Shown one piece after another: positions 30,568-46,313 of a DNA stretch of 64,000 nucleotides. The translations under genes and the position numbers were made by a program. The notes beneath the pieces were generated by a model, which was given only the letters and a program-made list of their open reading frames with translations, was not told where the DNA came from and made no database searches. The number at the start of each line of letters is the position of its first letter. Positions within the stretch are counted from its first letter, which is position 1. Source of the DNA: Pseudomonadota bacterium (GTDB lineage: Bacteria; Desulfobacterota; Binatia; UBA9968); contig JAJPJQ010000014.1 of assembly GCA_021324155.1 (NCBI GenBank), positions 1,166 to 65,165 on the forward strand, written 5' to 3'.

Positions 30568-30576
30568 ATTTCCGTA

Positions 30577-30975
30577 TTACTTTACGACGAAGTCGGTCCG
30601 GTCGGTCGCTTTCAGTTCCGTGATGTGATCGGTCGAGACGACCCTTAGCTCCAGCGTGTGCTTGCCGGGCTTGATGCCAGTGAGCGTGCCCTTTTCGCCG
30701 GAGAACATCCCCATCAACTCGCCATCGACGTAAGCGTGCACGTGATCGCCGCGCTTTCCCTTATTGAGCTTGAACTCCAGCGGGACTTGGTCCCCTTTAA
30801 ACTCTTGCCCGGTTTTCGGCGTGACGATCTTTACGCTCGCGCCCTCGGCCGGCTGCAGTTGGGATGACTTATGCCCCGGCATGTCCATTCCGGACATCCC
30901 GTTGTCTGCGGCGAGGGTCGGAGCGGCGGGGAAGATCAAGATCAAAAGCGCCGCCGCCGTTGTCCTCACCTTCAT
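30577..30975 (-). CDS. Exported small beta-sandwich protein with Met/His motifs (putative Cu-binding)
   Basis: Signal peptide, MSGMDMPGH, HVHAYVDGELMGM, GKH and DH. It is paralogous to the C-terminal domain of the CopD fusion. Confidence 0.75.
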   Translation of the reverse strand: MKVRTTAAALLILIFPAAPTLAADNGMSGMDMPGHKSSQLQPAEGASVKIVTPKTGQEFKGDQVPLEFKLNKGKRGDHVHAYVDGELMGMFSGEKGTLTGIKPGKHTLELRVVSTDHITELKATDRTDFVVK

Positions 30976-30994
30976 CAAGCCTCCCTATCTTTCT

Positions 30995-31855
30995 TTAGCG
31001 CAATGTAAATCCGCTCAAGCGACTCAATTCCTCGGGCCCCAGTACGCCCTCGTAGCGCCGGCCGTTGATGATCCACGTCGGGTAGCTGACAATCTGCATC
31101 TGGTGACACACCGGATTTTCGGGGCCGCGCGGGCCTTCGGCGCTGCATTCGACATAGGGAAGGCGGTCGGCGGCCGCGCCGAAGATGCGCTTCTGTTCCT
31201 TGCAATGCGGGCACCACGAGGCGCCGTAGAACTTCGCGTTCATCGCCGTCAGATGATCGGCGAGCGCCGCGAGCTTCGGGTCGGCACTCGATGTGGTTTC
31301 GAAGACGCCGGTGTAATTTAGATGTAGCAGCACGATGACGACGGCGGCGCCTGCTAGCGTCGTGACAATCCACGGAGTCCACGAAAAGCCGGACATGTCG
31401 GCAGGGCGCTGAAAGATGGTAAGCGCGAAGATCGCCGCCACCAAAGCGAACGAAGTCAGACAGTACGGGCACGCGGCGTGGAGCACGAGCAGCGATATGC
31501 TCGTAAGATACGCGCTGTAGAGCATGCCGAAAAACGCCACCAGGAACGCCGCTTTCCAGTGAAGCCGTGCGCGCTTGATGAACGCGATCGCGGCGAGCGC
31601 CGCATAGGTGAAGAATCCCCACAACGACGTCGGCAGGCCGAAGAGTTTCGCCCATTGGCTGCCGAGTACGACGTCGCAGACACTGCCCACCGCGCAGCCG
31701 GCGACCGCCTCGCCGCGCCATGCGGCAACCGTCAGATACGCGGTGAGCGCCATCCCGGCCGCCGCGATGGCCAACAGCGGCCAGTTGGGCGCACTCCGAA
31801 GCGGTTCTTTTGCCGCCTGCCCGTAAGCTCTCTTTTTGCGTGCTACCTTCGCCAT
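30995..31855 (-). CDS. VKOR fused to a thioredoxin-like domain (DsbB/DsbA-equivalent)
   Basis: GCAVGSVCDVVLGS loop Cys pair, CPYC in a TM helix, and C-terminal YGASWCPHC...YPTW. Confidence 0.92.
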   Translation of the reverse strand: MAKVARKKRAYGQAAKEPLRSAPNWPLLAIAAAGMALTAYLTVAAWRGEAVAGCAVGSVCDVVLGSQWAKLFGLPTSLWGFFTYAALAAIAFIKRARLHWKAAFLVAFFGMLYSAYLTSISLLVLHAACPYCLTSFALVAAIFALTIFQRPADMSGFSWTPWIVTTLAGAAVVIVLLHLNYTGVFETTSSADPKLAALADHLTAMNAKFYGASWCPHCKEQKRIFGAAADRLPYVECSAEGPRGPENPVCHQMQIVSYPTWIINGRRYEGVLGPEELSRLSGFTLR

Positions 31856-31857
31856 GA

Positions 31858-32490
31858 TTATCCGTTCTCGGCCAGCAGCTTTTTCGCGTCCGCTGCGAGC
31901 CGCTTGAGCGCGGCGGCATCGTTGCTTTCGTAGTATCCGCGGATCCGCGCCGAGCCGTCAACTAAAATGAAATGCGCATCGTGAAAAACTGCGCCGTCGA
32001 CGTGCAGGGAATCGTCGGCGATCGGAATCGCGCTCAGGTGGAAGCCATCCTGAACGAGCCGATAAACGTCGTTTTTTTTGCCGGTTAAAAAGAGCCAGCG
32101 CGCGGAATCGGCGTGAAAAAGCTCCGCATATCGCGCGAGGACGGCCGGGGTGTCGCGCTCCGGATCGACGGAAAAAGAAACCAGTCTGAATCCGTCGCTT
32201 TTGAGATCGTTCTGCAGCTGCGCCATCGCGGCGCTCTCGAGCGGGCACGTATCCTGGCACGCCGTATAAATAAAATCTGCGAGCCAGATTTTTCCTTTCA
32301 AATCCGACAGAGTCACCGGTTTGCCGCTCCGATCGGTGAGCGCGAAGTCGGGCACCGTACCGAAGTCGCCAAGGCCTTCGAGGGGCCTCGCATCGGATTG
32401 CGTTCTTCTTCCGCGCGCCATCAGCAGGCCGCCCAGCAGAACGACGATGAGCAGCGCCGTAAGAATATAACGAAGGCTTCGGTGCGTCAT
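31858..32490 (-). CDS. SCO1/SenC copper chaperone
   Basis: N-terminal TM helix, YTACQDTCP (CxxxC), SVDPERDTP and the conserved His (FHDAHF). Confidence 0.92.
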   Translation of the reverse strand: MTHRSLRYILTALLIVVLLGGLLMARGRRTQSDARPLEGLGDFGTVPDFALTDRSGKPVTLSDLKGKIWLADFIYTACQDTCPLESAAMAQLQNDLKSDGFRLVSFSVDPERDTPAVLARYAELFHADSARWLFLTGKKNDVYRLVQDGFHLSAIPIADDSLHVDGAVFHDAHFILVDGSARIRGYYESNDAAALKRLAADAKKLLAENG

Positions 32491-33392
32491 TGCTTGGGAA
32501 ATTTCTCGATCGGATAAAACACGTACGTGAGATGGAATTCTTTTATCGAATCCGGCACGGCGCCGGTGACGCGAAAGACGAGCGGGAACTCCTTCGTCTC
32601 ACCCGGGCCGAGCGTCTCGCGAATGAAACAGAAGCACTGGACAATTTCCAGGTATTTCTCGGCGTCAGCGGGGTCGTCGATGTGGCGCGCCTTCCCGGTA
32701 ACGATCCGCCCGGAGCGATTCGTCGCCGTATAAACGACCCGCAGCGTCTCGCCCGGCCGCGCGAGCACGGTGTCTTTCAACGGGCGAAAGTCCCAGGCGA
32801 GTCCCTCTTTGACTTCGCCGCTGAAACGCACGCGAATCGCGCCGGCGGTATTGGTCGCGACGCGCCACCGGCCGCTTTCTTTAACCAGGTCGACCCGGTC
32901 TTCGCCTTCGATCATCGGCAGTGCGTTTTGGGCGCGCAATTCTTCGAACTCGCGCGCGATCGCGCGCCGATCGTTCGGCGAAAGGGTTGCCAGGCGGCCG
33001 GCGTCGAAGTCTTGGGCGAGCCGCTGGACGGCTGGATTGTTCGCGTCGGGCGCGCGAAACGCGAAGCGCACGCTCGCGCGCTCGCGGTTGATGTCGGCGC
33101 GCACGTCCTTGAGCTCGATCATGCGCGCGAGGCCGCGCGCGACGTCCAGCGAGGCGCCGGAAAACGACGGGTTTTCCGTGAGATATTCGTCGCGGCTTTT
33201 GGCCTTGCGGTCTTCGGCGGAGAGCAGCGAATAAACTCGGCCGTAATCGCGCGCGTAGAGCGCGGCGAGATAGCGCCGCGTGAATTCCGAGGCGTCGCCG
33301 TCGGCGACCGGCTGGATGCGCCAGAAAGCGAGCGGAAGGATCGAGAGGACGAGCAGTGCGATGACGAATAATACGATCGAGCGTGCGTGCAT
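32487..33392 (-). CDS. CtaG/Cox11 copper-insertion domain fused behind an extra N-terminal domain
   Basis: C-terminal WDFRP...PGET...IVQCFCF...EFPLVF matches Cox11. An ~170-aa unassigned domain follows the TM anchor. Confidence 0.8.
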   Translation of the reverse strand: MHARSIVLFVIALLVLSILPLAFWRIQPVADGDASEFTRRYLAALYARDYGRVYSLLSAEDRKAKSRDEYLTENPSFSGASLDVARGLARMIELKDVRADINRERASVRFAFRAPDANNPAVQRLAQDFDAGRLATLSPNDRRAIAREFEELRAQNALPMIEGEDRVDLVKESGRWRVATNTAGAIRVRFSGEVKEGLAWDFRPLKDTVLARPGETLRVVYTATNRSGRIVTGKARHIDDPADAEKYLEIVQCFCFIRETLGPGETKEFPLVFRVTGAVPDSIKEFHLTYVFYPIEKFPKQ

Positions 33393-33397
33393 GGGCT

Positions 33398-34612
33398 TTA
33401 CTTCACCACAAAATGAACGGTATCGCTAGCGTCGAGCTCCGTCTGATGGTCTCCGGCGACGACGCGGAGCTCGAGCGCGTGATGTCCCGGCGTGATCCCC
33501 GTGAGCGTGCCGCTTTCGGTCTCGAACATTCCCATGAGCTCGCCGTCGACGTAGGCGTGCGCGTGCGTCCCGCGGCGGCCGGGCGTGAGACGGAACTTGA
33601 GCGGTACCTCGTCGCCGTGCAAGGTCTCGCCATCGCGGGGCGACAGAATTTTGATCGCCGCGCCCTCCGCCGGCGTGAGTACGCCGAACCTGGGCGCTGC
33701 GGCGAGCTGATGCGCGCTGTGGGCGCCGGGCGGCAGAATCGTGAGAAAGCCCGTGGCGACGAACACGATAATCGCGAGCACCGCTTCGGCGCCGATGCGC
33801 TGGAAGGCGTCGCGCGGGAACGGCGCCGGGTGCGGCGCGGCGATGAGATCGGGGAGGGTAAAATGCCGGTTGAGCGCGCCGAAAGCGAGCATCATCAAAA
33901 ATAAGGCGAGCTTCAATAAAAGAACGCGGCCGTAGGCGGTCTCCAGGAGCGAATCCCAGGTCCCGACCTGAATCCAGCTTTGAAAAATGCCGGTAGAAAC
34001 GAGGAGGACGACGCTGCGGAACGCCAGCCGTGAAAAGCGGGCGACTAAATTGCCGGTCCAGCCGGGCGACGTGGCGAACCGGCTGCCGCGCCAGAGCGCC
34101 CAGCAGAGCAGCGGCAGGCCGCCCGCCCAGACCGCTGCGACGGTCAGGTGAATTGCGTCGCAGGCCATCGCCATAAGCGGATATTCCCGCGCGGCGGCGG
34201 CGTGGCTGGTGAGACTCCGGCTCGCCGCGAGCGGTATAGCGGCGAGCACCATCCAGCGGCCGGCGCGCTCGGAGATATCCGTGTTTTGAAACGAGATGAG
34301 CAGCGCGAGCAGCAGCGCGCCGTAGATCTCGCGCCATAGCCAGACGTTTCCGCTTTGGGTTTTCATCACGTAGCGGAGGAGGACGTCGAGCGAGGGCAAG
34401 CCGCCGCCGGAAAGCTTTGCGCCTTGAACGATAAGCGCCGCGGCGGCGATCAAGAGAAAAGCCGCGGTGAACATCGCGGCAAACGATATTAGTTGCTTTC
34501 GCAGAGGACTTTCGCCGGGCGGCAGAACGAACGCGGCGGTTGCGAGCGAGCCGAGGACGAGCGCGGCCGTGAAATAAAGCGCGGCCGAAACGAGGCCTTC
34601 GATCGCGAGCAT
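33398..34612 (-). CDS. copD: CopD copper-import membrane protein fused to a C-terminal His/Met beta-sandwich domain
   Basis: SLTSHAAA, DAIHLTVAAVWAGG, RFSRLA and YGRVLLLK, followed by a soluble HAHAYVDGELMGM domain. Confidence 0.88.
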   Translation of the reverse strand: MLAIEGLVSAALYFTAALVLGSLATAAFVLPPGESPLRKQLISFAAMFTAAFLLIAAAALIVQGAKLSGGGLPSLDVLLRYVMKTQSGNVWLWREIYGALLLALLISFQNTDISERAGRWMVLAAIPLAASRSLTSHAAAAREYPLMAMACDAIHLTVAAVWAGGLPLLCWALWRGSRFATSPGWTGNLVARFSRLAFRSVVLLVSTGIFQSWIQVGTWDSLLETAYGRVLLLKLALFLMMLAFGALNRHFTLPDLIAAPHPAPFPRDAFQRIGAEAVLAIIVFVATGFLTILPPGAHSAHQLAAAPRFGVLTPAEGAAIKILSPRDGETLHGDEVPLKFRLTPGRRGTHAHAYVDGELMGMFETESGTLTGITPGHHALELRVVAGDHQTELDASDTVHFVVK

Positions 34613-34614
34613 TT

Positions 34615-34986
34615 TTATTTTCCGCCGGCGACCGTAAAGCGCAGCACGCCGTCGGTCACATGCGTGTCGACGGAAAGCACCTGCCATTCGATGCGGTACG
34701 TTCCCGGAGCGAGCGCCTTCACCGCGACGGCGACGGTATCGTCGGCGATTCGGCGGAGATTGCCGGCGTTCATTTTTTCCCCCGCCGCGTTCTTTACGTC
34801 GATGTGGCTGAACTCGAGCTCGATGCCTTCGGTAAATTGAATCCGAATCTCGCGCGGCGAATCGCGCAGTACGGCGCCTTCCGGAGGGACGGCGACCATC
34901 GGATACGCATGCGCGTGCAGAAGCGCCGGCGCGAGTGCCGCGGCGAGGGCGAGCACGCTAGCGACGATTAAAGGCTTGAAAGACAT
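34615..34986 (-). CDS. copC: Periplasmic copper-binding protein CopC
   Basis: Signal peptide followed by His1 (HAY), FTE, and WQVLSVDTHVT (DxH). Confidence 0.92.
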   Translation of the reverse strand: MSFKPLIVASVLALAAALAPALLHAHAYPMVAVPPEGAVLRDSPREIRIQFTEGIELEFSHIDVKNAAGEKMNAGNLRRIADDTVAVAVKALAPGTYRIEWQVLSVDTHVTDGVLRFTVAGGK

Positions 34987-35749
34987 ATGTGGCCTCGAAG
35001 GAATTCAGGTCGCCGCGCTCGCTCTTTTCGTCGAACTTGACGCGGGCGAGATAAGAATCCGCCGCGGGCGGCGTGAAGCGAACGCGCCCCTCGGCATCCG
35101 TCGTGAAATCTTTCGCGCCGCGGGCTCCGGCCAGCTTCGGCACGATCGAGACGACTTTGCCTTCGGCCGGTTTACCCTTGTATCGAACTTGCAGAACGAT
35201 GGACGCGCCACGCATGGCACTGGCTGCATTGTCCACTGGAACGATCTCGAGATCATCCCCGCCGCGCGCCTGCGGCGCGGCGGATCTGATTTTCTGCGCC
35301 TCGGCGAGCATCGGCAGCGCGAGCGCTGCGAACGCGCTGCGCGCGAAGCGCACGCCGCGAAAGCGCGGGCCATCGCCGTGCTGCAGATCGCGCTCCTGGC
35401 GCGCGACCACAGTGTAGACGCCCTCTTCATCGGCGACGAACTGCGCAACGTGGAATCCCTTAGGTCCCTTAGGGCCGGTGTTTTCCGGATCTTCGCCGAG
35501 GTCGATCATCTCGACCACGCTGGTCTTTCCCGATGGCGCGATCACGGTGACTTTGGTGAATTCCGCGTCCCATTTGCCGGCTAGCCGGTAGCTGCGATGC
35601 TCGTTCGAATGATTGCCTTGCATCAGCGCGATAGTTACCGGTTGGCCTTTCTCGACGATGGCCGGAGCGACCTCGATCCAGCCGTCGTGCGCGCGCGCCG
35701 CGCCGATCGGCAAGAAAATTATAAAAAAAGCCAGTGAGAAAACTCTCAT
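34958..35749 (-). CDS. DUF4198-like periplasmic protein (Ni/Co-transport-associated)
   Basis: Signal peptide followed by N-terminal His (AHDGWIE), GNHSNEH, LEIVP, YKGKP and TDAEG. Confidence 0.75.
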   Translation of the reverse strand: MRVFSLAFFIIFLPIGAARAHDGWIEVAPAIVEKGQPVTIALMQGNHSNEHRSYRLAGKWDAEFTKVTVIAPSGKTSVVEMIDLGEDPENTGPKGPKGFHVAQFVADEEGVYTVVARQERDLQHGDGPRFRGVRFARSAFAALALPMLAEAQKIRSAAPQARGGDDLEIVPVDNAASAMRGASIVLQVRYKGKPAEGKVVSIVPKLAGARGAKDFTTDAEGRVRFTPPAADSYLARVKFDEKSERGDLNSFEATYVFQAFNRR

Positions 35750-35864
35750 CTTCTCTCCGTTCACGGGTGACTTCGGAACTGTGTTTCGGGTGAAGTCGCG
35801 CCGAGGCAGCTAAGCGATGCCGAGCTCGCCTTCGGAGCGGTCAAAAAAATTTACAAAGACGAAA

Positions 35865-36170
35865 CTATGCCAGCGGAGGCGCTCGTGCGGAAACCGGGGA
35901 AGCGGTGGAAGACCGAAGTGAATCGACGGCCGAGGGAGCGAGCCATTGAACGACCTTTTCCTCGAACGTGAGAACGATCGCCGCTGCAACTTGCAGGTGG
36001 CAGGTCTTGGCGACGGCGAAAGCCTGACACGGGGCCGGGCGCGCTGAATGCGGATGCTCGAGAAGGTGATGAACCTGGTGTGGCGCGGAATAAAGGAGAA
36101 AAGCAAGGAACAACACCGCGACGGCGAGATAGGCCGGATGCTTGACGCGTCGATGGGCGTGCGGCGTCAT
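35865..36170 (-). CDS. DUF2946/CruR-like leader protein with C-terminal RAPP arrest motif
   Basis: Hydrophobic signal/TM segment, HQVHHLLEHPH...C-x8-CH, ending SARAPPLA*. Confidence 0.75.
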   Translation of the reverse strand: MTPHAHRRVKHPAYLAVAVLFLAFLLYSAPHQVHHLLEHPHSARPAPCQAFAVAKTCHLQVAAAIVLTFEEKVVQWLAPSAVDSLRSSTASPVSARAPPLA

Positions 36171-36177
36171 TGTGTGA

Positions 36178-36206
36178 ATGGTACCCGCGCGTTTAGTTGT
36201 TGTCAA
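36178..36206 (-). promoter_or_regulatory. sigma70 promoter giving a probably leaderless mRNA
   Basis: TTGACA-N17-TACCAT lies 7 nt before the ATG at 36170, with no SD. Confidence 0.7.
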
Positions 36207-36209
36207 ACT

Positions 36210-37013
36210 TTAGAAGTTGAGCGCGGTCGACCAGGTCGTCCCCACCGTTACCTGAAAGCGGTCGCCGGTCGCGAGCAGGCTGCGTCCGACCGCCACGTCG
36301 AAATACGCCGGAAGATTGGGGCGGTAGCGGATGCCGATCTGGAAATTGCCGACCGCCTTTTCGCCTTTCGCGCCGCGTGACAAGCCGTAGATATCCCCGA
36401 CGATGCGCCAGTTCTCGTTCAAGCCGTAGCGCAGCGCGACGCCGCCGAAAAACTGGTTCTCCAGCTTTGCTCCCTGCTGCCGGCCGACAACGGTGTAGCC
36501 GAGATTCAAATCGACCGCCGCGGGAAACCAATGCTTGGTCACGATCAAGAGAAAACCCTCGTCGAACTTGCCGGTCGATAGGCCGTTGTGGCTGTTCGCC
36601 GTCGGCACTTTGAGATCGAAAGTAAACGTCATGGCCGGCACATAGCCCTTTTCGACTTCTTCGACGAAGTTGTATTTGGAATACAGGTGGAGATCTTCGA
36701 AGCCGCTGACTGGCGACTCGCCTTTGAGATCGGTGTTGGTCCGGTCGAGTGTCAAACCTAGCTCGAGATTTTTGAGCACGCCGAAACCCAGCGTCATCGC
36801 CGGCGCTTGCTGATCGCGCCCGCCGTTTTCCGGCACCGTGTGCGTAAAGCCGATGGAAAACTGCACGTTGTTTTGAGCGACCGGCCGCGCGTCGTCGACG
36901 ACGAGCGGCCGCCCGGCGAAGGCGTCGGCGGAAAAAAAGCTAACGAACGCCGGGAGCAGTACGCTGAAAAAGGACTTCTTCCAAAACACGCCTGAGATTT
37001 TAATCGAAGGCAA
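36210..37013 (-). CDS. Outer-membrane beta-barrel 'transporter' (MetA-pathway/phenol-degradation-like), paralog 2
   Basis: Signal peptide, AGRPLVVDDA, amphipathic strands and C-terminal F. Confidence 0.75.
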   Translation of the reverse strand: MPSIKISGVFWKKSFFSVLLPAFVSFFSADAFAGRPLVVDDARPVAQNNVQFSIGFTHTVPENGGRDQQAPAMTLGFGVLKNLELGLTLDRTNTDLKGESPVSGFEDLHLYSKYNFVEEVEKGYVPAMTFTFDLKVPTANSHNGLSTGKFDEGFLLIVTKHWFPAAVDLNLGYTVVGRQQGAKLENQFFGGVALRYGLNENWRIVGDIYGLSRGAKGEKAVGNFQIGIRYRPNLPAYFDVAVGRSLLATGDRFQVTVGTTWSTALNF

Positions 37014-37027
37014 GAAACTTTAACAGT

Positions 37028-37801
37028 TTAATTTTGGGCGCCGAAGTTTAACGCCGTCGACCAGGTGACCCCGCAGGTCGCCTGAAAGCGATTGCCCGTC
37101 GGCAAAAGGCTCCGTCCAATCGCAGCATCGAACATCGTGAACTCACCCATGTGATAGCGGAGGCCGAGCTGGAAATTGCCGTCGGCGTTTGCGCGGCGGA
37201 CGGCCGGTGACAGCCCATAGATGTCTCCAACGACGCGCCAATTCTCGCTTACGTTGTAGCGCAGCGCCATGCCGCCGAAGAATCGGTTCTCGAGGTTCTC
37301 GCCTTTGCGCTTTCCCACGACGATATAGCCTAGATTGAGATCAACGGCGGCTGGAAAAAAATCTTTCGTGGCAAGGAACAAAAACGCCTCGTCGAATCTT
37401 CCGGTTGTTAACCCGCGATGTCTGTTCGCCGTCGGAACTTTCACATTGACGGCGAGTGAAAGGTCGTAAGTTTCGCCGGTCATAAAATCGTATTTGGCGT
37501 TGAGGTTGATATCCTGGAAACCGCTCAGCGGCGATTGCCTTTTAAGATCGGTATTCGTTCGCTGGATTGCGAGACCGACTTCGAGGCGTTTGATGACTCC
37601 ATACGTAGCCGCCATGATCGGAAACTGCTGGTCGCGGACGCCCTTCTCCGGCAGGGTGTGGGTAAAGCCGAACTCCAATTCGATGTTGCCAGCCGCAACG
37701 GTGGCCGCGTCGTCGACGACGAGCGGCCGTCCCGCGAAAACCTCGCCAGAATGACAGACCACTGCGCACAGCAGGGCAGCGAAAATGAGCCCGCGGTTCA
37801 C
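37028..37801 (-). CDS. Outer-membrane beta-barrel 'transporter', paralog 1
   Basis: GTGA overlap with the Ni transporter stop codon and AGRPLVVDDA. It is clearly similar to the next gene (KVPTAN.H.GL.TG.FDE, WSTALNF). Confidence 0.75.
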   Translation of the reverse strand: MNRGLIFAALLCAVVCHSGEVFAGRPLVVDDAATVAAGNIELEFGFTHTLPEKGVRDQQFPIMAATYGVIKRLEVGLAIQRTNTDLKRQSPLSGFQDINLNAKYDFMTGETYDLSLAVNVKVPTANRHRGLTTGRFDEAFLFLATKDFFPAAVDLNLGYIVVGKRKGENLENRFFGGMALRYNVSENWRVVGDIYGLSPAVRRANADGNFQLGLRYHMGEFTMFDAAIGRSLLPTGNRFQATCGVTWSTALNFGAQN

Positions 37802-38562
37802 AGCGAAGGATGCCAATCGATGATCTTCGGCAAAACCGATTCGTGTCCGGTGATGAAAACGATGCCGACAATGAGGCTGAAAAGCGCGACGCACCCGCCG
37901 ACCACGCGCAGGACCGTGATGTTGCGGCTCGCGAGCCGGAAGCCCGAGAGCGTCGCCATCGCGATCAGTGAATTCGAAATAACCAGCCCGATCACGAACG
38001 TGCAGAGCATGAGCGTACCGAGGAGTTTGCCACCCATTCCGGCAACGGCGAGGAACAGCAGCGCCTGCGTCGCGGTTTCGGCGCCGATGCCATGCAGCAT
38101 GCCGATGCCGAATGCGGCGCGCGGGCCGTAGACGGAGGTCCGCGTGAGTACGAACGGCTGCGGGTTTCCCGCGAGTCGATGCTTAGCCCATGTTGCCGAC
38201 GACCCGACGGCATCGAAGATCAGCATCCAGCGGCTGCGGAGTTTGAAGTCGTGGTGATGGTGGAACAGCGAATAGATGATCCAGACGGCGAGAAAAATCA
38301 GCGTGACGCCGACGGCCGGCCCCATGATGTCGTCTACCCATTCGGGCAGCGCGAGTCCGGCGAGGATCGCGAGGATGCCCAGGGCTATGACGATGAGCGC
38401 ATGGCCGAGGGCGTATAACGTTGCGAGGTATAAGCCGGGCCGCCATTCGTCGACTGTGCCGGTGATGTCGGTGATCGCCGCGATATGATCCCAATCGATG
38501 CCGTGCGCGAGACCTAGCAGAAGCGTCGTAACAAGCAGCGCCGCAAAGCTGTGCGTTTCCAT
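37798..38562 (-). CDS. Nickel/cobalt permease (NiCoT/UreH-HoxN-like)
   Basis: HGIDWDH (HxxDxDH), ALGH, an HHHH loop and GMLHGIGAET. It is adjacent to nikR. Confidence 0.85.
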   Translation of the reverse strand: METHSFAALLVTTLLLGLAHGIDWDHIAAITDITGTVDEWRPGLYLATLYALGHALIVIALGILAILAGLALPEWVDDIMGPAVGVTLIFLAVWIIYSLFHHHHDFKLRSRWMLIFDAVGSSATWAKHRLAGNPQPFVLTRTSVYGPRAAFGIGMLHGIGAETATQALLFLAVAGMGGKLLGTLMLCTFVIGLVISNSLIAMATLSGFRLASRNITVLRVVGGCVALFSLIVGIVFITGHESVLPKIIDWHPSL

Positions 38563-38589
38563 AGTCGTATCCTGATGTCGCGCGTCTGG

Positions 38590-38616
38590 GTAGCACTATT
38601 CTTATTTTAGTGTTAC
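38590..38616. promoter_or_regulatory. Putative NikR operator
   Basis: Near-perfect inverted repeat GTAGCAC-N13(AT-rich)-GTGTTAC upstream of the Ni permease. Confidence 0.7.
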
Positions 38617-38633
38617 CTGTAGACAAAAAAAAT

Positions 38634-39050
38634 TTAGTGGTGCGGTTCCACCGCAGTAGTCACGAGTTTTCCGTTTTCGACGCCTTTGGTCGAAATCAGC
38701 TTTGCGGCGACCTCGTGCACCTTCGCCGCACCGCCGCGGATCACGATCGCCTCGAGACAATTATGCTCGTCGAGGTGAATGTGCAGGCTGGCGTTGATTG
38801 CCACCTTCGCCTTGTGCTGCATGTCCGCCAAGATGTCTCCCAGATGATGCGTTCGGTGGTCGTAAACCAGGGTCACGACGCCGACGACGTCGCCGTCGCC
38901 CTGGCTCACCTTCTTCTGAATCAAGTGATCGCGGATCAGGTCGCGAATCGCCTCTGAGCGATTGGCGTAGCCCATCTCCGCGATGCTCCGGTCGAACGAG
39001 CGGAGCAGGTCGTCTTCGAGCGAGACGCCGAAACGCGAGACTCTCGACAT
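38634..39050 (-). CDS. nikR: Nickel-responsive regulator
   Basis: RHH domain SRFGVSL...NRSEAIRDLIR, plus YDH, QH and HIHLDEHNCLE Ni ligands. Confidence 0.96.
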   Translation of the reverse strand: MSRVSRFGVSLEDDLLRSFDRSIAEMGYANRSEAIRDLIRDHLIQKKVSQGDGDVVGVVTLVYDHRTHHLGDILADMQHKAKVAINASLHIHLDEHNCLEAIVIRGGAAKVHEVAAKLISTKGVENGKLVTTAVEPHH

Positions 39051-39064
39051 ACTACATAAGGGTC

Positions 39065-39091
39065 GTAGCACGTTCTTTAAAAACGTGTCAA
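39065..39091. promoter_or_regulatory. Second putative NikR operator overlapping the nikR promoter
   Basis: GTAGCAC-N13-GTGTCAA. The right half is the minus-strand TTGACA, and it lies 10 bp from the divergent -35. Confidence 0.6.
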
Positions 39092-39101
39092 CCGCGCCGC
39101 C

Positions 39102-39129
39102 TTGACAAGACTTAGCGGTCGCGCATAAT
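39102..39129 (+). promoter_or_regulatory. sigma70 promoter of the second RAPP leader
   Basis: TTGACA-N16-CATAAT lies 8 nt before the GTG at 39138. Confidence 0.6.
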
Positions 39130-39137
39130 TGGTGCAC

Positions 39138-39437
39138 GTGAGCCCGACCGTCAAAGCGCGAGCGATCGAAGCGCGGCATTGGACCGCCGCGGCCTTGTTG
39201 CTCGCTCTGCTGGCGCTCCCGCTTCATATCCACGCGTTCACTCCGACGCCGCAGCTGGCGCAGGAGTGCAGCTGCTATCAAGGCGCCCGGACCTGCGCCG
39301 TCGAGGTGCCACAGCCAGCGGACTTCGCGCCGTCGTTCCAGGCCACCGTCGTTCACGAGCAACAGCCTAGGCTCAACAGCCGCGTCGCTTTCGATTTTCA
39401 TTCGATCCGCGCTCCCCCGTCAGTCGCTTCTCTTTAA
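39138..39437 (+). CDS. DUF2946/CruR-like leader protein with C-terminal RAPP arrest motif
   Basis: Signal-like AAALLLALLALP, HIH...CSC-x6-C, ending SIRAPPSVASL*. Confidence 0.75.
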   Translation: MSPTVKARAIEARHWTAAALLLALLALPLHIHAFTPTPQLAQECSCYQGARTCAVEVPQPADFAPSFQATVVHEQQPRLNSRVAFDFHSIRAPPSVASL

Positions 39438-39464
39438 CTTTTCCCAGACAGAAAAATCTTGACC

Positions 39465-39504
39465 GTCTTTGCCCTCCCGCCGTTTGAGGGAGGGGAGACC
39501 TTTT
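39465..39504 (+). terminator. Hairpin/attenuator between the RAPP leader and the porin gene
   Basis: GTCTT(TG)CCCTCCC-loop-GGGAGGGGAGAC followed by CTTTT. CCCTCC is also complementary to the downstream GGAGGG RBS. Confidence 0.5.
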
Positions 39505-39519
39505 ACCTGGAGGGTGAGT

Positions 39520-40803
39520 ATGAGCGCATTTCGCGATGTGGCGCGGACCGTTTCGTCGTGCGCGGTATTGCTGGTGGTTACGTTGCTGGCGGACCCGGCG
39601 CGCGCGCAGGAAGATGTCATTCAGTCTCTCAAGAACTCCCTGGCTGATATCCAGAGGCAGCTCAAAGACGCGCTCACGCGCATCGAGCAGCTGGAAAAAG
39701 AAAAAGCGGCGGCGGCTGAAAAGGTCGAGGAGGTCGAGTCCTCGACATCGTCGCGCTTGGGGCAGGTGGAAAAATCGGTTCAGGCGGTGCAGAGCGCGGC
39801 CTCGGCGCTGAACCCGGCGATCGGCGCGGTGCTCGACGCCAACGTCCAGCACCGAAGTAAAACCGGCGGCAATTTCGATTTCCGCAGCGCCGAAATCGGG
39901 CTGGCGGCGTCGGTCGACCCATTCGCCCGCATGTACGCGTTTATCAACGGAACGAAAGACGGCGTCGAGGTCGACGAAGCGGCAGCGATCACCACCTCGC
40001 TGCCGTGGAACTTGACGGCCAAAGGCGGACGCTTCCTCGCCGACTTCGGCCGCTTTCCCAAGACGCACGAGCACGAGCTGCCGTTCGTCAACGAGCCCCT
40101 CTCAATCGAGCGGTTTGTCGGCGGCGAGAGCCAAGCCGACGGAGTGGAAGTGAGCTATCTTTTTCCCACGCCGTTCTTCCTGCGCGCCACGATGGGCGGC
40201 ATGAATAAAATCGGCGAAGCCAACGACCGGACCAGCAACGGCAAAAACCGCGCCTGGAGCAGATTCACCTATCTCACGCGACTTAATAGCTACCTGGACC
40301 TCAACGACAATAACAACGTAGAGTTTGGAACCAGCTTCGCGTACACGCCGAGCGTTCGCCTGCGCCACGATACATCGGGCGGCCCGCGCTTCCTCGGCGG
40401 CGTCGATCTGACCTACCGGTACCAGCCGCTCGGCAGCGTCATTTACCAGGGTCTCACAGTCGGGTCCGAGCTCTTCGTCAACAATGAGCGGCTATTCGCC
40501 GACGATGTGGCGCAGCGGCGCACAGCATTGGGCGGGTATAGCTACGCCGAGCTCAAGCTCAACAAGAACTGGTCAACCGGATTTCTCTTCGACTACGCCC
40601 CGGGCCTGTCGAGCCCGGGAAAGAAGACGATCGGGTATTCGCCGTTCCTTACCTGGAACATCAGCGAGTTCAACCGCCTTCGCTTCCAATTTACCCATGC
40701 CGACGATCATGTCCGCGAGGACAAGGACGATGGCGGCAATCAGTTCTTTCTCCAGTGGACGACCGTCATCGGCGCGCATACGCACGGCTTTGTCGGGCGT
40801 TAA
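39520..40803 (+). CDS. Outer-membrane porin/receptor with N-terminal coiled coil, metal-uptake associated
   Basis: Signal peptide, coiled coil, THEHELPF, beta-strands and C-terminal IGAHTHGF. Confidence 0.78.
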   Translation: MSAFRDVARTVSSCAVLLVVTLLADPARAQEDVIQSLKNSLADIQRQLKDALTRIEQLEKEKAAAAEKVEEVESSTSSRLGQVEKSVQAVQSAASALNPAIGAVLDANVQHRSKTGGNFDFRSAEIGLAASVDPFARMYAFINGTKDGVEVDEAAAITTSLPWNLTAKGGRFLADFGRFPKTHEHELPFVNEPLSIERFVGGESQADGVEVSYLFPTPFFLRATMGGMNKIGEANDRTSNGKNRAWSRFTYLTRLNSYLDLNDNNNVEFGTSFAYTPSVRLRHDTSGGPRFLGGVDLTYRYQPLGSVIYQGLTVGSELFVNNERLFADDVAQRRTALGGYSYAELKLNKNWSTGFLFDYAPGLSSPGKKTIGYSPFLTWNISEFNRLRFQFTHADDHVREDKDDGGNQFFLQWTTVIGAHTHGFVGR

Positions 40804-40825
40804 AAAAAATGAACGAGGAGTTAAC

Positions 40826-41758
40826 ATGAAGCCGTTAATGAAAAAGAAAATTTTCATCGCCATTTTGTTCGCTCCTGCGCTGGCTTTGGTTCCGGCGCGC
40901 ATTTTGTACGCGCAGTCGATCCGCGTGGTCGCCACATGGCCGGCGCTCGCCGACATCACCAAGCAGATCGGCAAAGAGCAGGTCAGCGTCGAAAGCCTCG
41001 CGACGGGAGTCGAGGATCCGCACGGCGTTCCTGTGAAACCGAGCTTCGTGCCGAAGCTCAACCGCGCCAACGTGCTGATTCTTACCGGGCTCGACGACGA
41101 GCACTCGTGGCTGCCGGCTCTGCTGGAAGTCGCGAGTAATCCGAAGCTCATGCCCGGACAGCCGGGCTACATCGATTGCTCGGTCGGCATACCCGTGGTC
41201 GACGCGCCGGCGCGCCTCGACCGCGCCGAAGGGGATTTGCACCCGAAGGGCAACCCGCACTATCTCCTCGATCCCGTGCGGGCCAAAACGGTGGCGCAGA
41301 ATATCGCCGCGGGCCTTTCGCGGAATTTTCCGCAGCATCAGGCGTTGTTCGAGCGCAACCTCAAGGCGTATCTCGCCGAGCTAGACGACTGGATCGGACG
41401 CTGGCAAAAAATCGCCGCGCCGCTCAAGGGAGTCAAGTTCGTCGAATATCATCCTGAGTGGGCCTATTTCGCCAATCGCTTCGGTATGAAGCGCGTCGGC
41501 AGCGTAGAGATCAAGCCCGGGATCGAGCCGACGCCGAATTATCTCGTGAGCCTCGTCCAGGAGATCAAGGAGCAGAAAGCGCAGGTCTTGCTCTATGGCG
41601 CGCAAAACCCGCGCCTGCCGCAGCAGATTGCCGGCGAGACCGGCATCAAAGTGCTGCGGCTTTACAGCAGCGGCGGCGGGCGGCCCGAGACGGACACCTA
41701 CATCAAATGGATCGACTACACCGTTCGCACGCTTGTCGGTGCGGTGGGGAACGGTTGA
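40826..41758 (+). CDS. Metal ABC transporter solute-binding protein (ZnuA/TroA cluster A-I)
   Basis: EDPH, GNPHYLLDP, YH and KPGIEPTP. Confidence 0.92.
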   Translation: MKPLMKKKIFIAILFAPALALVPARILYAQSIRVVATWPALADITKQIGKEQVSVESLATGVEDPHGVPVKPSFVPKLNRANVLILTGLDDEHSWLPALLEVASNPKLMPGQPGYIDCSVGIPVVDAPARLDRAEGDLHPKGNPHYLLDPVRAKTVAQNIAAGLSRNFPQHQALFERNLKAYLAELDDWIGRWQKIAAPLKGVKFVEYHPEWAYFANRFGMKRVGSVEIKPGIEPTPNYLVSLVQEIKEQKAQVLLYGAQNPRLPQQIAGETGIKVLRLYSSGGGRPETDTYIKWIDYTVRTLVGAVGNG

Positions 41759-41761
41759 GCC

Positions 41762-42472
41762 ATGATGAAATCTGCAACCGCGGAAGACGAAAAATTATCC
41801 ACCAGAGCGGCGCCGCTGGTCGCGCTCGACGGCGTCGCTATCGGCTATAGCTCGGCGCCGGTCGTCGAAGGCGTCGATCTAGCGATACGTACCGGCGATC
41901 TCATCGGCTTCGCGGGCCCGAACGGGTCGGGAAAAACGACGATCCTGCGCGCGATCCTGGGGCTTTTGCCGCCGCTGCGCGGAAGCATTACGCGCTCGTG
42001 CGCGCTCTCCGCATTCGGCTACGTGCCGCAGAGCGCCGCGCTCGATCCGCAGTTTCCGCTGAATGTTTCTGAAATCGTCGAGATGGGCGCCTACGGCCGC
42101 GTAACGCGGTTCGGGATTCTGCCGCACAGCGAGCGCCGGCGGATCGCCGAAGTCCTGGAGCAGGTCGGACTGCCGCATCTCGCCGGGAAACCCTTCTTCT
42201 CGCTCTCCGGCGGGCAGAAGCAGCGCATCCTGATCGCACGTGCTCTGATGGTGAACCCAAAGATCATGATCCTTGACGAGCCGCTTTCCGGCGTCGACCG
42301 CGCCTCGCAGCGCGCGATCACCGAATTGCTCATCAAGCTCAACCACGAGCGGCGCCTCGCAATATTTTTTTCGAGCCACGATCTGGAAATGGTGCGCGAG
42401 GTCTCGGAAAAAATCCTGCGGATCGACAAGGGCAAAGTGTGGTGGGAGGAGAAAGGAGCGGTGTTGGCCTGA
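41762..42472 (+). CDS. Metal ABC transporter ATPase (ZnuC-like)
   Basis: GPNGSGKT, GYVPQ, LSGGQKQR, LDEP and SSHDL. Confidence 0.95.
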   Translation: MMKSATAEDEKLSTRAAPLVALDGVAIGYSSAPVVEGVDLAIRTGDLIGFAGPNGSGKTTILRAILGLLPPLRGSITRSCALSAFGYVPQSAALDPQFPLNVSEIVEMGAYGRVTRFGILPHSERRRIAEVLEQVGLPHLAGKPFFSLSGGQKQRILIARALMVNPKIMILDEPLSGVDRASQRAITELLIKLNHERRLAIFFSSHDLEMVREVSEKILRIDKGKVWWEEKGAVLA

Positions 42473-43918
42473 ATGGAAACGTTGCTGCAGATTCTCAATC
42501 CATCCTATCTTCTCTTTCCGGCGCTCGTCGGCAGCGCGATTCTGGGGTTCGTATGCCCCTCTGTCGGCGCCTATCTGATCCTTAGAAGGACGATCTTTCT
42601 CGGCCTTACGCTGCCGCAAGTCGCCGCCGCCGGCGTCGCGTTCGCGTTTTGGATGGCTCAGCTCGGTTTCGCGGCGGCGTTCCCGGCGAGCGAGCGTTTT
42701 TTGGGAATGGCGGGCTCGCTCTTGTTCACGTTCGTCGCGCTGCTGCTGTTCGCGTATTTCGAGCGGCGGGGCAAGGGAACCGCCGAAGGCCGGCTCGCCG
42801 CGGCGTACGCCTTGGCCGGCGCGCTGACCATTCTCTTCATCGTCTTCAATCCCGCGGGCGAGATCGAGATCCTCGGTATGCTGAAGGGTGAGGTGCTTTC
42901 GCTCGCCAAAGGCGAGATCAAACTCCTCGCTGCCGTCTTCGGCTTCGTGGTCGCGGCGATGTTTCTTTTCCGCAGAGAGTTTCTGTTGAGCGCCTTCGAT
43001 CGCGATCTGTCGTTTCTGCTGAAGGGCGGCAATACGCTCTGGGACGTCATTCTCTATTTGCTTGCCGGCCTCAGCATCGCCGTCGGCGTCATCATGGCCG
43101 GACCACTGTTGATCTTCGGCTTTTTGGTGCTGCCGGCGCTGGCGGCGAAGCCGATCGTCAAAGGCATGACGGCTTTCTTGTGGCTCGCGCCGCTGCTCGG
43201 GGTGCTGATGGCGTTTCTCGGTTTTTACCTCTCGGTCAAGCTCGACACGCCGCTCGGTCCGACGGACGTCGCGGTCGGCTGCGCCATGTTGTTTATCGCG
43301 AACCTCGCGCGCGCTCTTCCGTTGCGCTCGGCGGCTACAGCACTGATGGTCATCATCGCATCGCTGTTCGCCGGCTGTGCTTCGGTGCAGGCGCCCGCGG
43401 CGTTTCCGGCGCCCGGAAGCGCGCCGCTGTGGCTCGCGCGGCCGAGCAACGACACGAATCTCAACCTGGCTCTGCCGGAAAACAACCCGCTGCGCTCGCT
43501 CGCGGAGATGGCAGGGAAAATTCCCAACGAATCACGCCAAACCGTTATGGACCTGCTCCGGGACGAGCTGCAAAGCGAGCTCAAGCGGCGCGGCTTCCAG
43601 GTCTCGCGTCCAGAGGAAGCCGATAAGCGCATCGCCAATTTTCCGTTTGCCGCCGAAACCGCCGCCGGCAATGCGCGCCAGGGAAAGCTTGCGGGGCTTC
43701 TCCTATTGACGGACATTCTCCGCTGGAACGCCGACTCCAGGCAATTCATCGGCGTGATCGCGGATTTCAAATTAATCCGCATCGTCGACGGCGCGACGCT
43801 CTGGCAGCGCCGCTACCAGCGCGCGGTGCCGACGCCGAGCGCGACCAATCTCGCACAAGCGTCTTCGGACGCGGTGAAAATGGTCGTGCGCGATATTTTA
43901 GACCCGGCCGGCTCCTAA
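42473..43918 (+). CDS. Metal ABC-3 permease fused to a C-terminal lipoprotein-like domain
   Basis: About 290 aa of ZnuB-like TM region (RRTIFLGLTLPQVAAAG, SAFDRD), then a lipobox-like LFAGC and an ~175-aa soluble domain. Confidence 0.85.
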   Translation: METLLQILNPSYLLFPALVGSAILGFVCPSVGAYLILRRTIFLGLTLPQVAAAGVAFAFWMAQLGFAAAFPASERFLGMAGSLLFTFVALLLFAYFERRGKGTAEGRLAAAYALAGALTILFIVFNPAGEIEILGMLKGEVLSLAKGEIKLLAAVFGFVVAAMFLFRREFLLSAFDRDLSFLLKGGNTLWDVILYLLAGLSIAVGVIMAGPLLIFGFLVLPALAAKPIVKGMTAFLWLAPLLGVLMAFLGFYLSVKLDTPLGPTDVAVGCAMLFIANLARALPLRSAATALMVIIASLFAGCASVQAPAAFPAPGSAPLWLARPSNDTNLNLALPENNPLRSLAEMAGKIPNESRQTVMDLLRDELQSELKRRGFQVSRPEEADKRIANFPFAAETAAGNARQGKLAGLLLLTDILRWNADSRQFIGVIADFKLIRIVDGATLWQRRYQRAVPTPSATNLAQASSDAVKMVVRDILDPAGS

Positions 43919-43964
43919 TCCGCGCTCATTGCGACGCGAAATCGATTGCTGTTACACTGCCTGC

Positions 43965-44846: not shown

Positions 44847-44862
44847 TTCGAGGAGAGCGCCG

Positions 44863-46209: not shown

Positions 46210-46313
46210 AGAATAAGCCCCCTCAGGGTTCCGGAATATTCTCGAAACAACGATCATACCGGTTTTTGACCCGTCCGACAAAGGCTTGGAGAGCGGGTCG
46301 TCTTTGGAGTAGG

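Follow-up and report, generated by a model that had tools for sequence, protein, structure and literature searches.

The window analyzed here, a 64,000-nucleotide (nt) stretch of contig JAJPJQ010000014.1 (contig C42 of the Binatia genome G000), carries a bidirectional cluster of metal-related genes at positions 30577-43918. This locus raises the question of whether its genes form a single route for nickel and copper or several uptake systems that lie side by side, and of what role is played by two small open reading frames (ORFs) that end close to the residues RAPP. A preliminary description of the window had proposed one pathway that leads, independently of TonB, from the outer membrane to the assembly of cuproenzymes and is co-located with nickel sensing. 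That description listed the RAPP leaders but left them uninterpreted, and we find them to be the most informative parts of the locus. The cluster reads best as three adjacent metal-uptake modules (nickel, copper, and zinc type), each with its own sensor, rather than as one Ni/Cu pathway. Overall, we consider it probable that three such modules stand side by side and that both leaders are arrest peptides of the CruR/CutF kind that serve as metal switches.

Gene calls were based on an ORF map together with Pfam and NCBIfam scans, which recovered every gene that had been named in the preliminary description, in or near its proposed place. The gene identities, a leader family with invariant residues and spacing, the gene contexts of its members, and the geometry of their promoters are established here.

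A family of small ORFs that end in RAPP

Each leader in the window contains a hydrophobic segment, a motif with histidine and cysteine residues, and a RAPP tetrapeptide near its C-terminus. In the leader that we call type A, the hydrophobic segment is accompanied by LPLHIH and ECSC (Cys47 and Cys49), and the RAPP codons (39408-39419) are followed by five further codons and the stop. The corresponding elements of the type B leader are APHQVHH and Cys60 and Cys69 (numbered along 113 residues), with RAPP (35885-35874) followed by two codons and the stop. RAPP or RGPP is kept in each of seven homologues from relatives, which diverge in the middle of the protein.

We scanned the complete genome of the same organism (4.8 Mb; the assembly is 98% complete) and found RAPP or RGPP no more than 12 residues from the C-terminus in 89 of 51,219 stop-to-stop segments of at least 50 codons. 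Only three of these 89 are clear relatives of the leaders: the two in the window and a type B leader on contig C49 (C49:110449-110754; L044:6016-6306), which precedes a 314-residue protein without a Pfam family, CopC, and a 180-residue protein. A 119-codon ORF on contig C38 (16818-17177) also has a hydrophobic segment and ends in ARAPPTVS. It gave no profile match, has no metal genes downstream, and was dropped; possibly it is a chance occurrence or another kind of RAPP ORF.

Across 1.84 billion proteins, a profile built from 14 sequences matched 176 representative clusters at an E value of ≤1e-3 (34 at ≤1e-10), and RAPP or RGPP lies within 12 residues of the C-terminus in 142 of the 150 representatives among the matches listed. 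One His, one Cys, and the R, P, and P residues are invariant in a 105-member alignment. The 120 best matches of a second search all lack both a precomputed Pfam domain and an informative name, and about 400 small proteins that are now annotated as “hypothetical” could be named on the basis of this family. Among 251 collected proteins ending in RAPP, RGPP, or RSPP, 136 belong to type A and 111 to type B, and 4 fit neither type. Type A proteins carry the motif FFLPLHFH...(K/Q)ECSCxHGxRTQ...IRAPP, in which two His and two Cys residues are invariant in 20 sequences, and type B proteins carry SAPHRVHHxFE...C...(S/Q)RAPP. Only two to six residues follow RAPP or RGPP in 242 of the 247 type A and type B proteins.

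The distance between the Cys motif and RAPP is also constrained. The second Cys of the CxC motif lies 44 residues before the RAPP arginine in 117 of the 136 type A proteins and 42 to 45 residues before it in all 136, and 47 residues separate Cys60 from Arg108 in the type B leader of the window. Both values are close to the spacing of about 45 residues that is known from proteins of the DUF2946 family (PF11162), in which the interval between CXXC and RAPP is 45 ± 1-2 residues and matters for function according to the report on CruR (Roy et al. 2022, PMC9426467). DUF2946 is the top Pfam family for 8 of the 105 aligned members (best E value, 5e-4, with all matches below threshold). It is likewise the top family for 5 of 11 relatives with a CxxC motif that were found with the profile in other families of the class and phylum (best score, 22.1 bits versus a cutoff of 23.7). 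We therefore read the leader family, from its sequence features, as a divergent branch of the DUF2946 superfamily.

Among genomes sampled from the class, 25 of 251 gave a profile match, and 5 of 301 did so among those sampled from the phylum. Within the class, matches were found in 14 of 18 genomes from the family of the window organism, in all 3 from a second family, and in none of 16 from a third. We then located 48 leaders in 55 stretches of DNA, chained the downstream genes by a simple ORF heuristic, and named them by Pfam and by BLASTP against the window proteins. Downstream genes could be read for 46 of the 48 leaders (the other two run into a contig end), and the gene sets are metal related or metal associated except for a few of unclear function.

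A homologue of the window porin follows 25 leaders, with ZnuA next in 24 of these (in L082, gene chaining stopped after the porin), and one more leader is a second, tandem copy upstream of a porin-ZnuABC operon (L084). One type A leader precedes DUF3299-ZrgA-ABC-FtsX genes (L091), and one CxxC leader precedes a TonB-dependent receptor and TonB (L103). Seven type B leaders are followed by a protein of 306 to 330 residues without a Pfam family and then by CopC and/or CopD. Three others, in the window, L025, and L026, are followed by DUF4198-CopC-CopD-Cox11, and four by a BNR-like protein with AhpC/TSA, CopD, and Cox11 fusions. The remaining four type B leaders precede, one each, Ig-Cox11-DUF4382-Sco, CopD, an MbnP-like gene, and an Ig-like gene with a multiheme protein. 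All 18 type B leaders with readable downstream DNA thus precede CopC/CopD, Cox11, Sco, MbnP-like, AhpC/TSA, or Ig-like genes. Therefore, the motif types sort by downstream genes: type B leaders go with copper genes, and type A leaders and their CxxC cousins go with porin-ZnuABC genes.

The first gene after a type B leader varies. Members of the family of the 314-residue protein described above occupy this place in seven loci, and this family has, as its nearest named Atlas cluster, outer-membrane Phenol_MetA_deg proteins (39% of members), which is only a lead. It shows no similarity to DUF4198, the alternative first gene. Type B leaders and this family may constitute a leader-barrel-CopC-CopD set for copper uptake.

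The leaders also share an arrangement at their 5′ ends. The two best sigma-70-like promoter matches between positions 30400 and 44000 stand immediately before the two window leaders (Table 1), and the one preceding the type B leader is conserved in the related loci L025 and L026. A -35 box matching at least five of six positions, with an in-frame start codon 27 to 45 nt downstream, was found for 35 of the 48 leaders and for 86 of 1,920 random placements. A strict version of the same test gave 6 of 48 leaders and 2 of 960 controls. Because the start codons sit at the promoters, leaderless or nearly leaderless mRNAs are predicted.

Nickel, copper, and zinc-type modules

Table 1. Features of the metal gene cluster in window coordinates (E values unless bits are given)
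Feature	Position	Strand	Evidence and remarks
Exported Ig-like protein, 133 residues, last copper-operon gene	30577-30978	-	BiPBP_C 2.5e-06; Met/His-rich N-terminus (MSGMDMPGH)
VKOR-thioredoxin fusion, 286 residues	30995-31855	-	PF07884 (VKOR) 5e-24; weak thioredoxin match
Sco1/SenC copper chaperone	31858-32490	-	PF02630 2.4e-29; CQDTC motif
Membrane-anchored N-terminal domain fused to Cox11/CtaG	32487-33392	-	PF04442 6.6e-26; CFCF motif
CopD membrane protein with C-terminal Ig-like domain	33398-34687	-	PF05425 1.4e-22; BiPBP_C 0.0012; NCBIfam CopD 123 bits (below cutoff, 195)
CopC periplasmic copper-binding protein	34615-34986	-	PF04234 1.9e-19
DUF4198 periplasmic protein, first gene after type B leader	34958-35764	-	PF10670 8.1e-22; probable start ATG 35749
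Type B RAPP leader, 101 codons from ATG 36170	35865-36170	-	Family profile 5e-16; frame 35865-36206, ends SARAPPLA
Sigma-70-like promoter, TTGACA-17-TACCAT	36178-36206	-	Second-best match (10/12) in 30400-44000; ATG 7 nt after -10 box
Barrel OMB1, 267 residues	36210-37013	-	No Pfam family; AlphaFold model with 12 strands, low confidence (pLDDT 52.7)
Barrel OMB2, paralogue of OMB1	37028-37894	-	58% identical to OMB1 (3e-106); true start probably downstream of 37894
NicO-like Ni/Co permease, 254 residues	37798-38562	-	PF03824 1.5e-04, 21.7 bits (below cutoff, 27.7); HGIDWDH and HHHH loop
NikR-box-like site, GTAGCAC-N13-GTGTTAC	38590-38616		27 nt upstream of NicO-like start; 1 mismatch to reversed delta-proteobacterial NikR box
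nikR, 138 residues	38634-39050	-	NikR_C 1.6e-25; RHH_1; NCBIfam NikR 173.5 bits (cutoff, 105)
Second NikR-box-like site, GTAGCAC-N13-GTGTCAA	39065-39091		15 nt upstream of nikR ATG; 3 mismatches to consensus
Sigma-70-like promoter, TTGACA-16-CATAAT	39102-39129	+	Best match (11/12) in 30400-44000; directly before type A leader
Type A RAPP leader, at most 102 codons	39129-39437	+	Family profile 3.6e-25; in-frame GTG at 39132 and 39138; ends HSIRAPPSVASL (IRAPPSVASL)
Intergenic hairpin, CCCUCCC-N9-GGGAGGG	39472-39494	+	Then U-containing tract, porin Shine-Dalgarno GGAGGG (39509-39514), and ATG 39520
Porin, 427 residues, N-terminal coiled coil	39520-40803	+	No Pfam family; AlphaFold model with 16 strands (pLDDT 74.9)
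ZnuA-family substrate-binding protein	40823-41758	+	PF01297 1.3e-51
ZnuC-like ATPase	41762-42472	+	ABC_tran 1.9e-28; best NCBIfam AztA 173.6 bits (below cutoff, 220)
ZnuB-like permease, 481 residues	42473-43918	+	ABC-3 5e-32 over residues 13-276; C-terminal extension of about 180 residues

The nickel module centers on nikR, whose product carries a ribbon-helix-helix DNA-binding domain and NikR_C, with Pfam and NCBIfam scores both above their cutoffs. Its best solved relative is the Pyrococcus NikR (2bj1; E value, 1.1e-36), and the motif QH...SLHIHLDEHNCLE (SLHxHxDEHNCLE) aligns with that protein, including the His and Cys residues that we take to be the high-affinity Ni ligands. The adjacent permease contains HGIDWDH, an instance of the HX4DH pattern that we likewise take to be the signature of the NiCoT (NicO/HoxN) family. 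This permease (254 residues) is shorter than the 287-position PF03824 model, and its match to NCBIfam NicT (E value, 5.9e-07) is far under the cutoff of that model. For the two neighboring outer-membrane barrels, a Foldseek search with the OMB1 model recovered FapF (E value, 1.6e-07) and the COG4313 channel 4rl8 (1.6e-06), with template-modeling (TM) scores of about 0.6. The model confidence measure listed in Table 1 is the predicted local distance difference test (pLDDT).

Two candidate operators frame these genes. We searched with the delta-proteobacterial consensus of Rodionov et al. 2004 (PMC545781), which is described there as a 27-bp inverted repeat with GTAACAC/GTGTTAC half-sites and a 13-nt spacer. 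The site ahead of the NicO-like gene is the best match in the genome, where only three sites with two or fewer mismatches occur in 4.8 Mb. The site ahead of nikR holds the perfect repeat CACGTT-N7-AACGTG, which is unique in the genome and is kept upstream of nikR in L025 and L026, and in the second family nikR is preceded by GTGTTAC-N13-GTAACAT. Because such sites precede both the NicO-like gene and nikR, NikR most likely controls nikR and the NicO-like gene, and probably also the two barrels. NikR would thus bind two operator-like sites and govern its own gene, the permease, and probably the pair of predicted 12-strand barrels. The conserved ligand motifs and the box-like repeats before a transporter gene and nikR resemble the nickel uptake systems described in PMC545781. 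The window differs from these in having a short NicO-like permease and then two outer-membrane barrels rather than NikMNQO, and its sites are predicted from sequence.

The copper module has its own promoter downstream of the barrels. The predicted leaderless mRNA would begin with the 101-codon type B leader and continue through DUF4198, CopC, CopD, Cox11, Sco, the VKOR-thioredoxin fusion, and the Ig-like His/Met protein, and the products of these genes would take up copper and load it onto oxidases. CopC, CopD, Cox11, Sco, and VKOR reach their Pfam gathering scores, and the scores of CopC, CopD, and Cox11 fall under the cutoffs of the corresponding NCBIfam equivalogs (Cox11, 106 bits versus 162). 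The N-terminal part of the Cox11 fusion is weakly Rv0361-like. Homologues of the VKOR-thioredoxin protein lie downstream of Sco in 15 of 20 related loci; an overlapping 328-codon ORF (30975-31961) was rejected as the VKOR gene, being in the wrong frame and without a Pfam family. The Ig-like protein is 58 to 69% identical to copies that adjoin Cox11 or CopD genes in relatives.

On the right arm, a second consensus promoter would drive the type A leader (about 100 codons), a dedicated porin, and the only ZnuABC genes of the genome. The porin matches no sequence family, and its model has the 16-strand fold of porins: Foldseek recovered OmpT (E value, 2.6e-11) and OprP (5.2e-11), as well as OmpM1 and OprO, with TM scores of 0.49 to 0.55. 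ZnuA, the ABC-3 permease, and the ABC_tran ATPase exceed their Pfam cutoffs, which gives the domain set of ZnuABC-type (cluster A-I) zinc importers, and the closest solved structure of ZnuA is the zinc-specific protein of Synechocystis (E value, 3.4e-22), with which the histidines of DPH, NPH, and HPxWAYF align. These three residues (H67, H146, and H210) and one more (H140) are unchanged throughout 20 homologues from operons headed by a leader, and no other ZnuA-family gene was found in the genome. The long form of ZnuB recurs in nine related loci. Its extension starts with a lipobox-like LFAGC after the last membrane segment, and the L027 protein has HEAT repeats at this place instead.

This importer resembles Zur-regulated ZnuABC systems in its cluster A-I binding protein with a three-histidine site, its ATPase, and its permease. 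It differs in that ZnuA lacks a long His-rich loop, that ZnuB is extended, and that a dedicated porin and a RAPP leader precede the genes. Moreover, no Fur/Zur-family gene was found in the 98%-complete genome even at an E value of ≤1, whereas control genomes gave matches. In 24 genomes covered by both the leader search and the Fur search, a Fur-family gene was missing from 7 and present in 4 of those with a leader, and it was missing from 2 and present in 11 of those that lack one. The third family, which has no leaders, carries two Fur-family genes in 10 of 11 genomes. The genomes are related to each other, so this distribution is a pattern and not a test, and the overall Fur tally includes two genomes flagged as unpublished. 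With a single TonB-dependent receptor and a single P-type ATPase besides the missing Fur family, the organism has an unusual metal-homeostasis repertoire.

One pathway, three modules, or chance neighbors

The conservation of the cluster bears directly on whether its parts belong together. The Cox11 fusion occurs in 28 of 41 related genomes (a tally that includes one genome flagged as unpublished), and we retrieved 20 loci around it and mapped the window proteins onto them. The whole cluster is present in L025 as far as the contig end. In L026 the left arm is complete, and extra DNA separates nikR from a type A leader; in L024 the sequence stops inside CopD. L027 belongs to the same genus; its VKOR, Cox11, and single barrel genes are divergent to a leader, porin, ZnuA, and ZnuB, and nikR, NicO, CopCD, and DUF4198 are all missing from it. 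In the second family (L030, L031, and L037), a nikR gene whose product is 72 to 75% identical lies upstream of a second ZnuA-ZnuC-ZnuB set followed by Cox11, Sco, and VKOR, and the opposite strand of two of these loci (L030 and L031) also carries leader-porin-ZnuA-ZnuB. In the third family (L032-L036, L038, and L039), Znu-like genes adjoin Cox11-Sco-VKOR, and nikR is absent from all seven loci within the DNA retrieved.

The linkage of copper and nickel genes that had been suspected at the outset therefore holds in part. With nikR linked to Cox11-Sco-VKOR in 5 of 20 related loci across two families, and missing from L027 and from the DNA retrieved for the third family, it is real but not obligatory. 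The arrangement as such is more than chance, given that the whole cluster recurs in genomes of the same genus and two other families have parts of it. For the small ORF, close homologues carry the source label “Candidatus Binatia bacterium.” The flanks of the cluster (28948-30567 and 43929-46281) hold an HD-GYP/receiver/GGDEF regulator at one end and patatin and CNNM/CorC genes at the other end, and the GGDEF regulator, patatin, and CNNM genes are found in L024, L026, and L027 as well.

One alternative is that the nickel, copper, and zinc-type modules are independent operons whose co-location has no functional meaning. Their separate promoters and sensors would be expected in that case, as would the difference in module content between close relatives (L027 versus L025 and L026) and the absence of nikR from the DNA retrieved for the third family. 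However, two families that share only about 43 to 51% identity in Cox11 have this same neighborhood of nikR, Znu-like genes, Cox11-Sco-VKOR, and leader ORFs, and the same flanking genes bracket the cluster across the genus. We consider purely accidental adjacency doubtful on these grounds.

It is unlikely, in our assessment, that both arms instead form one TonB-independent route for copper (and nickel) to cuproenzyme assembly, in which the porin-ZnuABC genes import copper and NikR coordinates the whole. Such a route would account for the order of genes in the second family, where nikR stands directly upstream of ZnuA-ZnuC-ZnuB and Cox11-Sco-VKOR, and for the ZnuABC-like genes that adjoin Cox11-Sco in the third. 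It also agrees with copper sensing by the leaders of this class that have been characterized, CruR and CutF (PMC9426467 and PMC9973294), and with the fact that CxxC-type leaders too head porin-ZnuABC operons. The window itself is organized differently: promoter and leader are separate for the copper genes and for the porin-Znu genes, the leader types carry different sensor motifs and divide cleanly according to the genes that follow, and the NikR-box-like sites flank only nikR and the NicO-like gene. The right arm encodes a zinc-type importer rather than a copper one; its ZnuA has the three-histidine site and is the only member of its family in a genome without a Fur/Zur-family gene, and one type A leader elsewhere heads a ZrgA/DUF3299 operon. 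Finally, L027 lacks nikR, NicO, and CopCD and yet keeps both the barrel-Cox11-VKOR part and the leader-porin-Znu part. The single unified pathway of the preliminary description is thus not borne out.

Other elements of that description stand. The outer-membrane components are channels and the genome has one TonB-dependent receptor in all, which agrees with a TonB-independent route across the outer membrane, and the left arm does combine CopC/CopD uptake genes with Cox11, Sco, and VKOR maturation genes. Its observation that the window has no TonB-dependent receptor, efflux ATPase, or client enzyme is also correct, with all genomic copies located on other contigs: the receptor on C7, the P-type ATPase on C18, three COX1 genes on C20, C13, and C18, and one NiFe hydrogenase on C20. 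No urease was found in a search of the genome. The porin-ZnuABC and barrel-CopC-CopD sets point to TonB-independent routes of metal entry in the Binatia. As to novelty, the modules are of known kinds and only their combination is not described as such, because the RAPP leaders belong to the class already represented by CruR and CutF.

How the leaders might act

Two arrest peptides provide the precedent. CruR (Bp2923) of Bordetella pertussis, a DUF2946 protein, is reported to be a ribosome-arrest copper sensor in which copper relieves arrest and allows Rho-dependent termination (PMC9426467). Its homologues head operons with genes for TonB-dependent receptors, PepSY, Sco, PCuAC, YcnI, CopC, MbnP/H, and AhpC/TSA (PMC9426467), and the Sco, CopC, MbnP-like, and AhpC/TSA contexts among these are also those of our type B leaders. 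In Rhodobacter capsulatus, copper-induced stalling on CutF is reported to melt a stem-loop that conceals the next gene's ribosome-binding site (PMC9973294; 10.1101/2025.02.05.636593). A survey of 5,334 CutF-like proteins by Ozturk et al. (same two reports) found Cys, His, and mixed motifs, with His-only clusters beside HupE/UreJ genes, and the authors already state that not all members are copper specific. More generally, RAPP and RGPP are described as tetrapeptides that arrest translation readily and are among those most avoided in bacterial proteomes, with arrest in vitro for CruR and Streptomyces examples (Fujiwara et al., EMBO J 2025, PMC12992588). The principle of the arrest peptide is therefore already published.

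Like CruR, the window leaders are small ORFs that open a metal operon; they have a hydrophobic segment toward the N-terminus, a Cys motif about 45 residues from a C-terminal RAPP that has a few residues after it, and a spacer before the next gene. With CutF they would share a nascent exported sensor, a metal motif, a C-terminal proline stall site, and a stem-loop able to hide the next ribosome-binding site. As in the ORFs collected by Fujiwara et al., the C-terminal motif occurs in small proteins that are secreted or lie in the membrane and whose genes precede those for metal homeostasis and thioredoxins. The differences from CruR lie in the start codon at the predicted transcription start (cruR has a 45-nt 5′ untranslated region), in spacers of 82 to 100 nt with GC-rich hairpins (162 nt with Rho-dependent termination in cruR), and in the porin-ZnuABC or CopCD-Cox11 genes downstream in place of a TonB-dependent receptor. 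CutF relies on CxxxC and PPP and switches on a detoxifying oxidase at high copper, whereas the window operons serve uptake. The downstream classes named by Fujiwara et al. (TonB-dependent receptors, YcnI, PCu(A)C, PepSY, and DsbA/thioredoxin) differ from those found here as well. Roy et al. do not use the words zinc, ZnuA, ABC, or porin in their main text. The same four words, as well as CopC, Cox11, and Binat-, are absent from that of Ozturk et al., whose context table (File S1) may overlap with the contexts found here. In Fujiwara et al., the main text lacks zinc, ZnuA, ABC transporter, substrate-binding, porin, CopC, and nickel.

That the RAPP ORFs are instead ordinary membrane-anchored periplasmic metal-binding proteins (chaperones or accessory subunits) with RAPP as a structural or sorting motif would suit their conserved hydrophobic segment, invariant His and Cys residues, and length of about 100 residues, which is long for a leader, but we judge this quite improbable given the position of RAPP or RGPP at the extreme C-terminus, the strong avoidance of these arrest-prone motifs in proteomes (PMC12992588), a fixed 44-residue spacing that matches the functional one reported for CruR, the constant place of the ORF as first gene set against a strong promoter, and the codon bias described below.

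As divergent relatives of the CruR/CutF (DUF2946) arrest peptides, both would be expected to stall the ribosome on the C-terminal RAPP. At the stall, the His/Cys motif some 44 to 47 residues upstream would be just out of the exit tunnel and could meet its metal, which we infer to be copper for type B and zinc for type A. Metal binding would then alter the duration of the stall, and the stall would set downstream expression through the structured, C-rich spacer. Ribosome-binding-site masking and unmasking, intrinsic termination, or Rho may be the RNA mechanism.

Several features of the RNA bear on such a role. In individual folds, a hairpin with a pyrimidine-rich 5′ arm and a purine-rich 3′ arm is present in all 16 type A spacers examined. 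Beyond it come a U-containing tract and a weaker hairpin that covers the Shine-Dalgarno sequence, and the sequence of the first hairpin is nearly identical between loci whose porins are just about 32% identical. The minimum-energy fold of the window pairs the RAPP codons with the Shine-Dalgarno and start region of the porin gene. Over 39 loci, the pairing energy between the RAPP-codon window and the downstream Shine-Dalgarno sequence averages -13.4 kcal/mol, compared to -8.9 for other windows of the ORF and -11.4 for composition-matched shuffles, and the RAPP window is best or tied in 19 loci. The codon CCU is overused at both RAPP prolines (18 and 16 of 48, versus a background of 11.9%, in related sequences that are not independent), which suggests selection at the RNA level. 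The C-over-G skew after RAPP (median, +0.11 per nt; among the highest 10% of local windows for 23 of 47 loci) is weakly suggestive of a Rho loading site and is partly forced by the RAPP codons themselves.

Other results weigh against the reading that we prefer. For the RNA, the spacers do not fold more stably than shuffled controls (z, -0.43 and -0.57), and when 16 spacers were aligned with MAFFT, RNAalifold retained only four base pairs. The pairing between RAPP codons and the Shine-Dalgarno sequence is stronger than at least 95 of 100 shuffles at no more than 7 of 39 loci. For the relationship to known arrest peptides, the PF11162 model matches neither window leader at an E value of ≤10 and nothing else in the genome, and neither leader has the CXXC of CruR or the CxxxC of CutF: type A has CxC with HxH, and type B has PHxVHH with one or two Cys residues. 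For the nickel module, a barrel precedes Cox11 without nikR in L027 and L040, which bears on whether the barrels serve nickel or copper. For zinc, the three- or four-histidine site of ZnuA could bind other metals, and all NCBIfam equivalogs (AztC/AztA/AztB and ZnuA/ZnuC/ZnuB) score under their cutoffs, so the ZnuABC set is no equivalog of a named system. The two points raised above for a single copper route, namely, the ZnuABC-like genes directly adjoining Cox11-Sco in two other families and the sensing of copper by CruR and CutF, count here as well. Provided that the leader is a metal switch at all, we put zinc as the metal of the right arm at slightly better than an even chance.

A more specific proposal is tentative, and we hold it to be less likely true than false. 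The type A leader might be a zinc-sensing nascent-peptide switch that stands in for Zur in Binatia lineages without Fur-family regulators and controls the only ZnuABC of the cell along with a dedicated porin. It would act from a leaderless mRNA, with RAPP codons that double as an anti-Shine-Dalgarno sequence, and beside a copper-sensing sister leader. Metal-sensing arrest peptides have been shown experimentally for copper only (CruR and CutF). A branch unrecognized by Pfam heads the only ZnuABC of genomes without a Fur/Zur-family regulator. If the type A leader senses zinc, the mechanism would extend to that metal, and a nascent peptide could do the work of a classical repressor. Two sister leaders with different sensor motifs in one locus offer a compact natural system for the study of metal selectivity in arrest peptides, and the strict 44-residue spacing and predicted leaderless start add to their use for this purpose.

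Three gene arrangements among the leader loci were noted in more detail. In L098, L100, L101, and L102, a type B leader is followed by a BNR/sialidase-like beta-propeller, a thioredoxin-like AhpC/TSA protein, a short CopD, and tandem Cox11 fusions, a set that differs from that of the window. In place of porin-ZnuABC, L091 (genome G462, contig C1) has Zrg-type zinc uptake genes behind its type A-like leader. In L084 (genome G541, contig C2), two type A leaders stand in tandem, about 1.1 kb apart, before one porin-ZnuABC operon.

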